A stretch of DNA of 64,000 nt from Candidatus Paraimprobicoccus trichonymphae (GTDB taxonomy: Bacteria; Bacillota; Clostridia; Oscillospirales; Acutalibacteraceae): contig AP027925.1 in NCBI GenBank assembly GCA_036322875.1, forward strand, positions 693,203 through 757,202. Direction: 5' to 3'. A program made the position numbers and the translations under genes. Positions 35-40,472 of this stretch are shown one piece after another. Below the pieces are notes generated by a model. It worked only from the letters and a program-made list of their open reading frames with translations. It did no database searches and had not been told where the DNA came from. The first letter of the stretch is position 1. Every line of letters starts with the position of its first letter.

Positions 35-778
35 TCAGGCACAAACTGCTGGACTAGGCAAAAAATCCTCCTCAGTAGCACCTTTATAACCCACGCCTCT
101 TAATGTTTTCACATACTTAGGATTTTCAGGTTCATCTTCTATCTTTTTTCTGATATACCTGATATGAACATCTACAGTTCTGATGTTATCTTCGCAATCA
201 GCTCCCCAAACTTTTTGAATGATCTGATGTCTATTTAATACTCTACCTTTTGATTTAATTAGAAGAGTAAACATATCAAATTCTTTAGTGGTTAATTCTA
301 CAAAACTACCTCTTTTGGTAATAGTTCTTTTTGCCAAATTTATACTAATTTCTCCGATGTTTATTATCTCTTCAACGTCAAGATTAATTTTCAGATTATC
401 ATTTCTTCTAATAACTGATTTCACTCTTGCACAAAGTTCTCTTAAACCAAAAGGTTTAGTTACATAATCATCAGCTCCCATTTCAAGAGCAAGGATGCAA
501 TCGACCTCTTCGCTCTTAGCAGTTAATACTATAATAGGAATACTCTTAGTTTCTTTTTCTAAATTTAATCTACCACAAACAGCTAAGCCATCAACATCCG
601 GCATAATCAAATCTAATATTATCAAATCTGGTTTTTTTTTGTTGATAGCTATCAAAAGATCCTTTCCACTAGAAAATTCTTGAGTCTCAAATCCCTGTTC
701 ATTTAGTGCTACACTAACCGTCTTTCTAACGTTTGATTCGTCATCGGCTATGTATACCAAATTATTTTGTCTATACAT
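35..778 (-). CDS. OmpR/PhoB-family response regulator (receiver + winged helix)
   Basis: ORF 35..793. Receiver motifs IADDE, LIILDLIMPDVDG, LTAK, KPF. C-terminal winged helix (VHIRYIRKKIE...TLRGVGYK). ATG at 778 preceded by AAGGTG is preferred over GTG at 793. Confidence 0.85.
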   Translation of the reverse strand: MYRQNNLVYIADDESNVRKTVSVALNEQGFETQEFSSGKDLLIAINKKKPDLIILDLIMPDVDGLAVCGRLNLEKETKSIPIIVLTAKSEEVDCILALEMGADDYVTKPFGLRELCARVKSVIRRNDNLKINLDVEEIINIGEISINLAKRTITKRGSFVELTTKEFDMFTLLIKSKGRVLNRHQIIQKVWGADCEDNIRTVDVHIRYIRKKIEDEPENPKYVKTLRGVGYKGATEEDFLPSPAVCA

Positions 779-1362
779 CGACACCTTAAACACAACACAT
801 CCTTGATAAATTTTTTAAATATATTTTCGAATATATTTATTCCTTGTGATAATAGTTGAGACAACATTAGATCACTCTACTATTATATGCAACTTTATTA
901 CTAAATAAAACCAATTGCAATACCTAAATTTAATTTTATTTAATCTTTATTAATATTTATTAAAAATTGTGCCTTAAAAACTAGTTTTATTAATATTATT
1001 ACACAACATTAAAGTCAAATACATTCAAAACATTGTTTAATTAACAAATTTTTCATAATTTATATCATTTTTATTTTTTATTAAATAATATACCAAAATA
1101 TATGAATTTTAAAACCTAACGACAAAACAAATAAAAAAACCTTAGCGGTTATATATGAAATTTATAATTTTTTTGAATTTTTTTTTATTTCTTTTGTATT
1201 ATGAGTTTTACATCGGTAATACTTTAGAAATTATTTGTTCAAAAATATTTGAAAAAACTAATTACACAAAACTTTTATAAAAAAAAACGTAAAACCTATG
1301 GTTTGATTGTTCTTTAATCGAATAAGGAGTTAAAAATTTTGAATTTTTTTAAAATAAAATTC

Positions 1363-36946: not shown

Positions 36947-37591
36947 TCAGAATGCTCTAAGTGCGTTCATAGCCGCAACTCCAGCATATGTTGAAACGTT
37001 TTCTAACATATTCTCAGATTTTATGTCCATCACGGTTGTTGGTGAAAGTTTGGTTCCAGTATCTTCTACTATATCGATAGCTACGCTTGCTTTTAAAGGT
37101 TTTCCCCACCTAGAAAAGCAGGCAAAATCAACATTAGCGGCTGCCATTATACCTAAAAATCCGCCAATATCCTCATCTCTGTCTGAACCCCAGTCTTCTC
37201 CCCCCCAAGAAAAAACAACATAACCACCAGCATGTTTTACTAATTTTGGCAGTGAAGTAACGTCTTCTTCCAAAAGAGAAATTCCGTTAAGACCGATCGT
37301 GTCATTCAACGTACGAAGATTGTATTCGTCAAATATATCGTACATTAGAGTGAAATTTATTTTTCGACAATTGTCCTCTTTGTCTGTTCCTCCTCGTTTC
37401 AGCTTAATTCTATTTTCTGTCATTGGCAGGATATTTGTTTTACTCTTAACAGCAAACGAAAATGTACTTGGATTAAATTGTACAGGCAATTTATCTTTTT
37501 TACTAAGATCATTGTTTAAAGTATAAATAAATGCTTTAGAAACAACACTAAAATCATTTAAGGCATATGTTCTATATGACAAAATAATCAC
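36947..37591 (-). CDS. Contractile injection system tube-initiator-like protein (Afp7/Pvc7 N-terminal-domain family)
   Basis: KAFIYTLNN....LPVQFNPSTFSF, INFTLMYD, VVFSWG, FLGIM..ANVDFACFSRWGKPLKASVAIDIVE follow the conserved CIS tube-domain pattern. Likely TTG start at 37582 after GGGGTG. Confidence 0.65.
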   Translation of the reverse strand: MIILSYRTYALNDFSVVSKAFIYTLNNDLSKKDKLPVQFNPSTFSFAVKSKTNILPMTENRIKLKRGGTDKEDNCRKINFTLMYDIFDEYNLRTLNDTIGLNGISLLEEDVTSLPKLVKHAGGYVVFSWGGEDWGSDRDEDIGGFLGIMAAANVDFACFSRWGKPLKASVAIDIVEDTGTKLSPTTVMDIKSENMLENVSTYAGVAAMNALRAF

Positions 37592-37744: not shown

Positions 37745-38480
37745 TAATTGGTGTTTTAATTAGCTAAAAACCAAACAGATTTTTATTTTTGTGTTTTTCG
37801 CGATTTTCCGTAAACTCTATTTAATTTCAGGCGTAAATTTCCATGAACCTCACAGTACTAATATTTACTTGAAATGCCAAAATTCTTAATTTTCATCTAA
37901 AATATTTTTTACAGCATTAACATTTATATCATGTTTGATACCATATTTTAGGCAAATTCAATTGAGAATTTTTAAATCTTTAATTTTAGAATTCTTAAAG
38001 CCGTGATTGCTGCATTAATTGACTTAGAAAATTTGTGATTTTTTGCCATATTCTTAATTTGTAAATTTTCTGTAACAAACGTTGAAATTTAATTATTTTT
38101 TTACCTGTTTTTTTGCTATCTTATTCGATTTTAGTAAAAAATTTTGTGGCTTAAAGAATACCCTGTATCAACCTGTCGACCGAATCAATAGTGGATTATG
38201 TACAAAATCAAGGAAACTAAAATGGAAAAGGCATTTAAATTTAAAATTTATCCGAATAAAAAACAAATTGAGATAATGCAAAAAACGTTTGGATGTTGCC
38301 AGTTTTTTATGGAACTATTTTTGCCAAACAAATCGGTCAATAAAAACTTGACAAATTAGCGATGAATTACAATACATACTCAAGCGTTATGACAAAATTA
38401 AAAAAAAAAGATTTGGCTTAGAGAAGTATATTTTACTTTTAGACAGTCAATGTTAAAAGATTTAGACTATATTTATAAAA
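37745..38480. pseudogene. Two opposed IS200/IS605 remnants (tnpB 3' half + right end on -, tnpA end + tnpB 5' end on +)
   Basis: Minus strand ENLQIKNMAKNHKFSKSINAA... then GGTTCATGGAAATTTACGCCTGAAAT. Plus strand YVQNQGN* followed by MEKAFKFKIYPNKKQIEIMQKTFGCC. Confidence 0.6.
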
Positions 38481-39222
38481 TTACACTGTTCATTTGTATC
38501 TTGATTTTTTCACTTATAAGTGAAATAAATTCTGAATTGGTAGGTTTACCACGAACTTCAAGTACAGTATACCCAAAATACATATTTAAAATTTCAGCGC
38601 TTCCTCTATTCCAAGCAATTTCTATTGCATTTCTTATGTTTCTTTCAACCCTTAAAGCTGTTGTAAAAAATGTTTCTGCTACCACTGGGTATAATTTTTT
38701 AGTTATTGTGTATATATATTCATGGTTACAAATACATAAATTCAAGGCTTTTCTCAAATAGATGTAACCTTTTATATTTGCAGGTATTCCAATTTTATGT
38801 AAAATATTTATTATTTTCGTTTCTAATTCATAATTCTGAATATTGCAATTTTCATAATAAATTTTTTTAAGTATATTTATTAATTCAAGACAATTAAATG
38901 GTTTTGAAATACAATTGTCAATTTTATACTGTAATATTTTTTTTTCAAATATATTTTTTAGAAAATGTTTTACCAATAAAATTTTTAATTTTTCAGCACA
39001 TTTTAGACTCCTAACATTTCTTAGTATTTTGTTAATGTTTTTTTCGTTAAAATCAAATAAATTCAAAATGATTACATCAAAACGGTTAGCTTCAATAATT
39101 TTAACTATTTCATTATAATTGAAAAACGGTAACATGTACATATCTATACCATTTAAATCTAAAATTTTTCTTTCATAGTTATCAAAATTACTATTATCTT
39201 CTATATTAAGAACCCGTAACAT
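38473..39222 (-). CDS. spo0A: Spo0A-family regulator with atypical (Asn-substituted) receiver domain
   Basis: C-terminal Spo0A_C signature GIPANIKGYIYLRKAL...LYPVVAETFFTTALRVERNIRNAIEIAWNRG...FGYT...GKPTNSEFISLI. N-terminal receiver fold with IEDN...FDVIILNLF...ISKPF. ATG 39222 aligns with the canonical N-terminus (the ORF track starts at TTG 39246). Confidence 0.85.
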   Translation of the reverse strand: MLRVLNIEDNSNFDNYERKILDLNGIDMYMLPFFNYNEIVKIIEANRFDVIILNLFDFNEKNINKILRNVRSLKCAEKLKILLVKHFLKNIFEKKILQYKIDNCISKPFNCLELINILKKIYYENCNIQNYELETKIINILHKIGIPANIKGYIYLRKALNLCICNHEYIYTITKKLYPVVAETFFTTALRVERNIRNAIEIAWNRGSAEILNMYFGYTVLEVRGKPTNSEFISLISEKIKIQMNSVIL

Positions 39223-39594
39223 TTTAGGTTTAAATCTAGCCTCCAAAAAATTTTTACATTTTTGAAAGATTTTAACACGTAGAATAAAAAAAACAACACA
39301 ATAGATATAGAAAAATACGCCATTTATCTATGTAAATTACATAATTAAACATTATATGTAAATTTATTTAAAAATTTTATATACAATATGTACGTCTACT
39401 AAAATGAATTGATTATTTCTAAAAAAACGAAAAACAACACAAATATTTAAGCGAAATTTAATATATTAATGATATTTTTATTATTTTCATTGCTTTAGAT
39501 TTTGTATAAGATTTCGTAAATTTTGGAAAAATGCTTAAATTTCCCCTTAAAAATTTTCTCCATAACATCGAGTTATTTTTATAGAAAAAAGGCG

Positions 39595-39642: not shown

Positions 39643-40472
39643 AATTAAGTAATTTTTAGAATTAAAACGCAACCAATCTTTTAAATTTGCCCATAATTTT
39701 TCAATTTTATTTTTGTCCGGAGAATATGGCGGAAGCCAAACGACGTGGCATTTATAATAAGCATGCAATTTTTTCGAGTTCCGATTTTTTGTAAAAACTA
39801 ACGTTGTCCATCACAATTATGCTGTTTTGACGTAAAACTGGGCAGAGTTCATAGTTAAACCAAATTTGAAAAAATGCCGCAGTCATCGACCATTTGTACA
39901 TTCTGACTGCAATCTATTTTTCGTTAATTTGATCCGCAACGATATTTATCCGCTTAAATTTTCGTCCGGGCTCAGGAATAAAAACTCTTTTTCCACCGTA
40001 ATGTTTTGCCATAAACTTATTAACATCGCATTCGTCAATATAGGCAATGTCGGCACATTGGTTTAGACATTTTTTCATCGAATTCTTGATGTTTTATTTT
40101 GTCCCTTTCGATGTAAAAATACTCTTTTTTTGAAGTGATTCCTATTCGTTTCAAAGCATTGAATACACCGGATGTCGAACCACCAAATTTTTCTGCTATT
40201 TCTGAAAGCATTGCGCCGGGATGTCCTTCGATGTAAGATTCAAGCTCTTCGGTGAAAAATTTTGTCGCACTTCTCCTTTTTAACCGCTTTTCTAAATTTC
40301 CTGTTTCGTTTAAAAGTTTTTTCCACGCTTTTTTGAACTTACGCTTACACCCATACACCTAGTTACTTACGTGCTTCTTCATAAGTGTGAGATATTTTAA
40401 GACCAATTCTCGCGCGTCCTTTGAATATGACAGTTTGATTATATCACAGATTCTTTTAAATCGGAATAGCTA
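39643..40472 (-). pseudogene. IS630-family element, copy 2 (inverted relative to copy 1, one end truncated)
   Basis: Near-identical to copy 1 (mirror ORFs 26305..26505 and 39866..40066 differ at 2 of 66 residues). Terminal TTTTAAATCGGAATAGCTA at 40454-40472. The other end is lost at about 39643. Confidence 0.8.

Follow-up and report, generated by a model that had tools for sequence, protein, structure and literature searches.

The window analysed here, a stretch of 64,000 nucleotides of Candidatus Paraimprobicoccus trichonymphae strain RsTa-C01 (contig AP027925.1, positions 693,203 to 757,202), carries on its minus strand an open reading frame (ORF; 38473..39246 of the window) that encodes an orthologue of Spo0A, a developmental master switch whose control by a phosphorelay or orphan kinases is a textbook example. 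The frame comprises 257 codons from a TTG at 39246, and an in-frame ATG at 39222 gives a 249-residue form with MLRVLNIEDN at its N-terminus. The start is one or the other; a Shine-Dalgarno-like GGAGG (39240..39244, minus strand) overlaps the TTG and lies 17 nt ahead of the ATG. Residues are numbered below from the ATG, Asn54 in this scheme being Asn62 when counted from the TTG. The G+C content of the gene is 22.5%, and 16.4% at third codon positions (GC3). RsTa-C01, a Clostridia phylotype (Acutalibacteraceae, Oscillospirales), is obligately intracellular and putatively lives as an energy parasite of Trichonympha agilis, a protist from the termite Reticulitermes speratus. Its genome has 1,276,969 bp (27.5% G+C, 839 coding sequences and 248 pseudogenes), and by transmission electron microscopy (TEM) it ‘frequently contained an endospore’ (Takahashi et al. 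2023, PMC10579323). It has sister endosymbionts, CfP3-15 and NkDv07, the second of which forms spores as well. Spo0A and the sporulation genes go unmentioned in that paper and its supplement, and we found no later papers naming strain RsTa-C01.

The C-terminal half of the protein is a genuine Spo0A_C effector domain (38503..38814, minus strand), responsible for DNA binding and transcription activation, as an earlier note on this DNA had recognized. It matches Pfam PF08769 across model positions 1-104 of 104 (125.8-128.5 bits, E 8e-37), phmmer pairs it with the Spo0A effector structures 1LQ1 and 1FC3 (E 1e-33 to 1e-34), and Foldseek superposes it on the same two structures with TM-scores of 0.87-0.92, a root-mean-square deviation of 1.2-1.6 Å and 46-49% identity. 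The helix-turn-helix recognition region TTALRVERNIRNAIEIAW (38611..38664, minus strand) retains the core RVER.IR..E.AW, and the GKPTNSEF motif is also kept. The N-terminal half, residues 2-119 (38866..39219, minus strand), is a pseudo-receiver in which the (beta-alpha)5 fold survives. An AlphaFold2 model with a mean predicted local distance difference test score (pLDDT) of 88.6 gives it five strands and five helices at pLDDT 75-95, and Foldseek matches it to the receivers of CheY, Spo0F and PhoP at TM-scores of 0.7-0.79. Its score against Pfam Response_reg is 21.2 bits, under the gathering cutoff of 30.2, and the whole protein scores 158.7 bits against the NCBIfam equivalog TIGR02875, under the cutoff of 200. 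Identity to relatives is ~20% in the receiver and ~55% in the DNA-binding domain.

The five signature positions of the receiver active site hold Glu8, Asp9, Asn54, Lys85 and Lys107, as against the canonical D, D, D, S/T and K; all lie on the minus strand. The acidic pair, D10/D11 in Bacillus subtilis Spo0A, is kept as Glu8-Asp9 (GAA GAT; 39196..39201, from alignments and codons), and the conserved Lys-Pro after strand beta5 is kept with Lys107 (AAA; 38902..38904). The phospho-acceptor position, Asp56 of B. subtilis, is occupied by Asn54 (AAT; 39061..39063) and the Thr/Ser switch position, at the end of beta4, by Lys85 (AAA; 38968..38970), the placements of these two residues and of Lys107 being drawn from alignments and the model together. 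A third replacement, Lys61 (AAA; 39040..39042), stands where the MPxxDG loop has an Asp that is 100% conserved in 70 comparison Spo0As.

The assignment of Asn54, which the earlier note had proposed, stands in four independent alignments or models. A phmmer comparison with PDB entry 5UIC pairs FDVIILNLF with YDIVVLDIG and so brings Asn54 into the acceptor column. MAFFT alignments with B. subtilis Spo0A, serving as a ruler only, and with first 30 and later 79 relatives set Asn54 at the acceptor Asp. A profile hidden Markov model (HMM) of 79 Spo0A receivers, from which the RsTa-C01 protein was left out, scores 40.8 bits over its full length and, with top posterior probability, matches N54 to D, K85 to S and K107 to K. 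In the AlphaFold2 model strand beta3 comprises residues 50-54, with Asn54 as its last residue. The alignment of LLVKHF with MLTAF puts Lys85 at the switch, in line with the note's further claim of a residue other than Thr or Ser there, and ISKPF preserves the Lys-Pro. The most obvious objection, that Asp57 of NLFDF (GAT; 39052..39054, minus strand) is the true acceptor, finds no backing: no alignment or model places it there, and by alignments and model it lies in the beta3-alpha3 loop and aligns with the Met of MPxxDG. In a further database sample of 109 other Spo0As the acceptor was Asp in 106, Glu in two and Ser in one; separately, a Spo0A-like database protein of 256 residues (P0134) apparently has Gly at this position, judged by eye (PDVAIIGVTLKNLDG). 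By descent, then, the RsTa-C01 protein is a Spo0A orthologue, and one that lacks the phospho-acceptor defining the mechanism of the family. With the acceptor Asp, the Thr/Ser switch and the loop Asp all lost, His-Asp phosphotransfer would no longer switch it on, and we infer that neither a phosphorelay nor orphan kinases could phosphorylate it.

The remaining signalling proteins of the genome agree with this. Two histidine kinases are left, one with transmembrane, HAMP and HisKA segments (C1:403067-404119) and the other a soluble, sensor-less orphan (C1:886640-887587, minus strand) whose dimerization and histidine phosphotransfer (DHp) segment is duplicated, the first copy without the His (FNIENPL) and the second reading VHDIKNPL. 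There are two canonical OmpR-type regulators, and none of these four genes adjoins another. One of the regulators lies in the window itself (35-793, minus strand; Response_reg 101.9 bits, Trans_reg_C 91.5 bits, no kinase adjacent) and was taken as the internal reference for how well receivers are conserved. As the two kinases are matched by two OmpR regulators, the inventory fits a Spo0A without a kinase.

There is no other Spo0A to take its place. A six-frame search of the complete 1.277-Mb genome, reading through stop codons, returned a single Spo0A_C match and no second copy even as a fragment, which removes the possibility that a canonical spo0A lies elsewhere and that the present gene is a degenerating paralogue. 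The downstream pathway, for which the earlier note had advised a search, proved to be there: the sigma F/E/G/K cascade and stage-II to stage-IV genes were found as open frames. SpoIIAA, SpoIIAB and SigF are open in an operon that spans the coordinate origin (C1:1276607-1276969 joined to 1-1096), SpoIIGA is followed by SigE, and SigG, SigK, SpoIVB and the 783-residue SpoIIE are open as well. SpoIVA is open and scores 399.8 bits, complete matches in 13 relatives scoring 322-413 bits. SigF is short and divergent (211 residues; 172 bits against a cutoff of 321), and a sixth sigma-70 protein (C1:1003128-1003796, plus strand) scores equally as SigE and SigK (~170 bits), besides the bona fide SigE and SigK. 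A SigH-like sigma factor was not detected in the genome, the best TIGR02859 match (35 bits) falling on SigE; a SigH-like ORF of ~200 residues (93-139 bits) is present in 12 of 15 relatives of the same family.

A Spo0A that reads canonical 0A boxes is most likely still in use at spoIIE, to judge from the DNA upstream of that gene. In the direction of the gene it runs TTCGACA-aat-TTCGACA-(22 nt)-TATAAT-(~50 nt)-ATG (C1:484345-484250). No other perfect tandem TTCGACA-N3-TTCGACA exists in the genome, and the TATAAT is perfect too. No perfect tandem appeared in any of 10 genomes simulated with a third-order Markov model, while imperfect tandems are at background (17 observed, 14-28 simulated). No fewer than 120 records of the genome collection share this 20-base layout, against ~8 expected as estimated under uniform base composition; among the matches listed nearly all are from Firmicutes, and seven stand immediately ahead of spo0A genes. 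In B. subtilis the stage-II promoters carry weak 0A boxes, and those of spoIIG and spoIIE have -35-like and -10 elements ~21-22 bp apart, overlapped by the boxes. Both are sigma-A promoters activated by Spo0A (PMC12090719). A side result of the same collection search (TTCGACA-N3-TTCGACA-N19-25-TATAAT; L111-L230) is that many uncultured Clostridia have a near-identical promoter, TTCGACA...TTCGACACA(N)AATTAACATAATATGCTATAAT. No ORF of at least 80 codons occurs within 400 nt downstream at 46 of the 123 sites listed, and this promoter may drive a small gene (perhaps abrB-like) or an RNA.

On balance, and with modest confidence, we take the protein to be the functional and sole Spo0A of RsTa-C01, one with a pseudo-receiver that works without His-Asp phosphotransfer. 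Its Spo0A_C domain would still bind 0A boxes and activate stage-II promoters, at least that of spoIIE, and its N-terminal domain would keep the receiver fold, probably for dimerization or to hold the effector domain. The start of sporulation would in that case depend on the amount of Spo0A or on a non-phosphoryl input. The perfect tandem site at spoIIE could offset the loss of phosphorylation-enhanced binding, a compensation by two perfect boxes that we infer from the promoter. Three outcomes had been envisaged in the earlier note for a Spo0A of this kind, namely constitutive activity, regulation by another mechanism, or a decoy. The last does not suit the only spo0A of a bacterium that has retained the sporulation cascade and from which endospores have been reported; constitutive or otherwise regulated activity fits best.

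A number of observations weigh against this interpretation, and the alternatives draw on them. The endospores themselves are documented by one sentence and one figure, and it was from location that the cells seen by TEM were identified. Of the five active-site residues, three (E8, D9 and K107) are kept, and the soluble orphan kinase is conserved, having an orphan orthologue with a single DHp segment in the sister genus, g7, where in one genome (G006; L100) it lies beside hsp20. Some phosphoryl chemistry might consequently persist, with Asp57 or a Ser/Thr as the acceptor, or with Asn54 deamidated to Asp, the orphan soluble kinase then being the donor. There are precedents of a sort. CheY D57N is reportedly phosphorylated on Ser56. 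Deamidation can turn an acceptor-position Asn back into Asp, and a mutated phospho-site is sometimes compensated (PMC4395418). Set against this, Asp57 lies in the loop of the model rather than at the end of the strand, the switch and the loop Asp have gone along with the acceptor, and the two kinases already have two OmpR regulators to serve. An Asn followed by Leu, as at Asn54, is moreover a slow context for deamidation. In Clostridium difficile the D56A substitution abolishes phosphorylation of Spo0A and severely cuts sporulation (bioRxiv 10.1101/2022.02.07.479450). We regard phosphorylation by such a non-canonical route as very unlikely.

The distribution of 0A boxes elsewhere in the genome is a further difficulty for a Spo0A that governs sporulation without phosphorylation. 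The 450 bp ahead of spoIIAA and the ~570 bp ahead of spo0A itself contain no box with one mismatch or fewer, and spoIIGA has a lone TGACGAA-type box ~270 bp upstream. Over the whole genome TGTCGAA shows no enrichment (89 against ~115 expected; 29 against 30 expected in intergenic DNA), and single perfect boxes adjoin ordinary-looking genes, e.g. rnpA-, acpS-, lepA- and ptsI-like ones as judged by eye from translations. In addition, three positions that are at least 90% conserved in the family have changed in or beside the recognition helix (S190L, A195N and H198N), and DNA binding could be altered. These facts might mean that the protein is functional but repurposed, no longer governing entry into sporulation and serving, for instance, other genes through a changed DNA specificity. 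The spoIIA promoter of B. subtilis depends on sigma H; in RsTa-C01 a near-consensus sigma-A-type promoter (TTGACA-N18/19-TATTAT) with no 0A box stands ~60 bp ahead of spoIIAA, and it might need no activator. Yet the one perfect tandem 0A site of the genome stands at spoIIE, a classic Spo0A target, with no other Spo0A to read it, and in the tree the protein groups with the Spo0A orthologues of its family. A regulator that has been reassigned in this way is, in our estimation, more doubtful still than the non-canonical phosphorylation.

The remaining objections concern the state of the gene. A tree of 80 Spo0As places the RsTa-C01 protein with the Acutalibacteraceae genera g7 and g122, on what is by far the longest branch (root-to-tip 5.1, median 2.9). 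Of the 64 columns conserved to at least 90%, it departs from the family at 15, the three in or beside the recognition helix included; the other proteins depart at a median of one and a maximum of seven. Its Spo0A_C score is the lowest among primary copies (128 bits as against 150-163). The replacement codons are mostly A/T-rich, with GAT become AAT and with AAA, TTA, ATA and AAT codons; GC3 is low, and the genome has 248 pseudogenes. The gene has also left its usual place, as the earlier note had suspected: spoIVB is directly upstream of spo0A in five of six relatives examined and is 362 kb away in RsTa-C01 (C1:1094474-1095595). The translocated gene is bracketed by remnants of insertion sequences (IS). 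Upstream lies an IS630-type transposase remnant (40035..40358, minus strand; PF01710, E 1.5e-9), and 114 nt past the stop codon of spo0A is the IS605 remnant that the note had mentioned, an IS200/IS605 TnpB N-terminal segment (HTH_OrfB_IS605; 38198..38359, plus strand; PF12323, E 3.1e-10). All this would suit a decaying relic whose function was recently lost under genome erosion and AT pressure, in which case sporulation, if any, would start without Spo0A.

Several features of the gene speak against decay. The frame of 249 codons is open despite the large divergence, which argues that the gene is under selection: in simulations of neutral drift at the base composition of the genome the probability of no stop codon was 0.02 after 50 substitutions and 0.0005 after 100, and 100 substitutions leave 73% amino-acid identity, far above that of the real protein. 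The predicted receiver fold is kept and with it the pattern of burial, the hydropathy of the receiver following that of the family with r=0.67 (matched by none of 5000 shuffles) and, at columns with residues rare in the family, with r=0.29 (matched by 63 of 5000). The RVER.IR..E.AW and GKPTNSEF motifs survive in the effector. Neither of the other two response regulators is degraded; they score 101.9 and 97.9 bits against Response_reg, compared with 21-23 for Spo0A, and AT pressure alone therefore does not erase receivers in this genome. SpoIVA shows no unusual divergence, which makes the acceleration a feature of spo0A in particular. The unique perfect tandem at spoIIE is made of sites containing CG, which should decay when unused at 27.5% G+C, and the downstream cascade is whole and endospores are reported. 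Taken together, these points make a relic unlikely, and a working pseudo-receiver Spo0A is the reading that we retain.

Some further candidates and observations at the locus may be recorded. Disproportionate degradation of the receiver relative to the effector proved unsupported, the identity of the receiver being 0.20 where 0.16 is predicted from that of the DNA-binding domain; both are accelerated. A leftover of the old spo0A promoter behind spoIVB was ruled out, the TGTCGAA at C1:1094453 lying inside the 3′ end of the convergent dnaJ. Promoter-like matches upstream of spo0A number 16, with 10.7 ± 3.2 in shuffles, and in such AT-rich DNA the scan is uninformative. Just downstream of spo0A an ORF of 214 residues (36947-37591 of the window, minus strand), isolated among IS remnants, has a weak match to a contractile-injection-system tube protein (PF19266, 30.6 bits).

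Close relatives of the protein were sought in a word-indexed search, in an exhaustive phmmer search over 1.84 billion representatives and in a scan of genome contigs, and none was found; the best full-length match, of the g7 type, has 46% identity. Those with the highest scores are not relatives but multi-domain proteins with repeated Spo0A_C. These metagenomic proteins (P0002, P0003 and P0121-P0123) carry two to four Spo0A_C domains in tandem with little or no receiver, P0002 for example having three copies in 394 residues, and they outscored all true orthologues in both database searches. We know of no description of this tandem architecture.

The loss of the acceptor Asp is a recurrent event in the order. 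Among 79 other Oscillospirales Spo0As, taken from the genomes of relatives, the acceptor is Asn in five (L002, L037, L047, L062 and L089), Glu in three (L009, L021 and L027) and Ser in one (L013). The Asp-less proteins are scattered over the tree, and the Asp has therefore been lost independently many times; judged from the sequences, there are at least five independent D-to-N changes in Oscillospirales Spo0As, plus D-to-E and D-to-S. SpoIVA is intact in all nine of these other genomes with an Asp-less Spo0A. In two unrelated members, L002 (region of G033:C1:1073129-1073440) and L089 (G096:C52), the acceptor Asn is accompanied by Met for the conserved Lys (YFIPMPF and YFIIMPF). The nearest genus, g7 (L092 and L094, i.e. 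G006:C117 and G326:C20; also P0128), keeps the acceptor Asp and has Gln-Ser for the Mg-binding acidic pair (MIFQSAKD and IISQSIKD). On the face of the alignment, this neighbouring small-genome lineage has disabled the same site by another route.

Comparison with the canonical Spo0As of B. subtilis, Geobacillus stearothermophilus and C. difficile shows the same receiver and Spo0A_C architecture, a sole copy together with a sigma F/E/G/K cascade, and TGTCGAA boxes ahead of spoIIE. The RsTa-C01 protein differs in its Asn acceptor, its Lys switch and the Lys at the loop Asp, in scoring below the TIGR02875 and Pfam receiver cutoffs, in its separation from spoIVB, and in belonging to a genome where no SigH-like factor was found. 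According to the C. difficile study all Spo0A proteins investigated are regulated by phosphorylation, and phosphorylation of Asp56 is needed in both B. subtilis and C. difficile (bioRxiv 10.1101/2022.02.07.479450).

Closer parallels exist among the aspartate-less or pseudo-receiver regulators, such as RitR, ChxR, HP1043/HP1021 and BldM/WhiI, in which a receiver fold with a non-Asp acceptor is joined to a DNA-binding output. RitR has Asn at the acceptor position, as here, and further changes in the active site and orphan status are common to the group. Like them, the RsTa-C01 Spo0A presumably works without His-Asp phosphotransfer; unlike them, its output is a Spo0A_C domain and it stands atop a developmental programme that is, by the textbook, phosphorelay-dependent. 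How pseudo-receivers are activated is an open question (PMC12632262). Spo0A is not discussed as a carrier of such a receiver in the reviews PMC4395418 and PMC12632262, and we found no published description of one.

There are also artificial precedents. B. subtilis has a constitutive Spo0A allele, sad67. The isolated DNA-binding domain of Spo0A likewise bypasses phosphorylation (PMC3485338). The constitutive forms resemble the RsTa-C01 protein in that promoters are activated without phosphorylation once inhibition by the receiver is relieved, but they are laboratory deletions or truncations, whereas the RsTa-C01 receiver is natural, full-length and predicted to be folded. A short interdomain linker as the source of constitutive activity was ruled out; 40 residues separate the KP motif from PAHIKG, as in many canonical Spo0As.

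A broader proposal can be made only tentatively. It is possible, if rather less than probable, that RsTa-C01 launches endospore formation without any His-Asp phosphorylation, through a hard-wired pseudo-receiver Spo0A, the loss of SigH, and a tandem site at spoIIE for which binding need not be enhanced by phosphorylation. Spores would in that case be a transmission stage entered by default and controlled by dose, not the outcome of a decision taken on starvation, and RsTa-C01 would be the phenotypically documented tip of a repeated disabling of the Spo0A site, loss of the acidic pair included, in small-genome Oscillospirales that keep their sporulation machinery.

What sets RsTa-C01 apart from cases known from metagenomes only is that an Asp-less sole Spo0A occurs together with endospores seen by TEM, a link between genotype and phenotype. 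With one regulator and one perfect candidate binding site, it is also a small and tractable system. If the interpretation is right, the list of pseudo-receiver regulators would gain outputs of the Spo0A type, the initiation of endospore formation could be rewired to run without two-component signalling, and the case would suggest how host-restricted Firmicutes build sporulation into an obligate life cycle.

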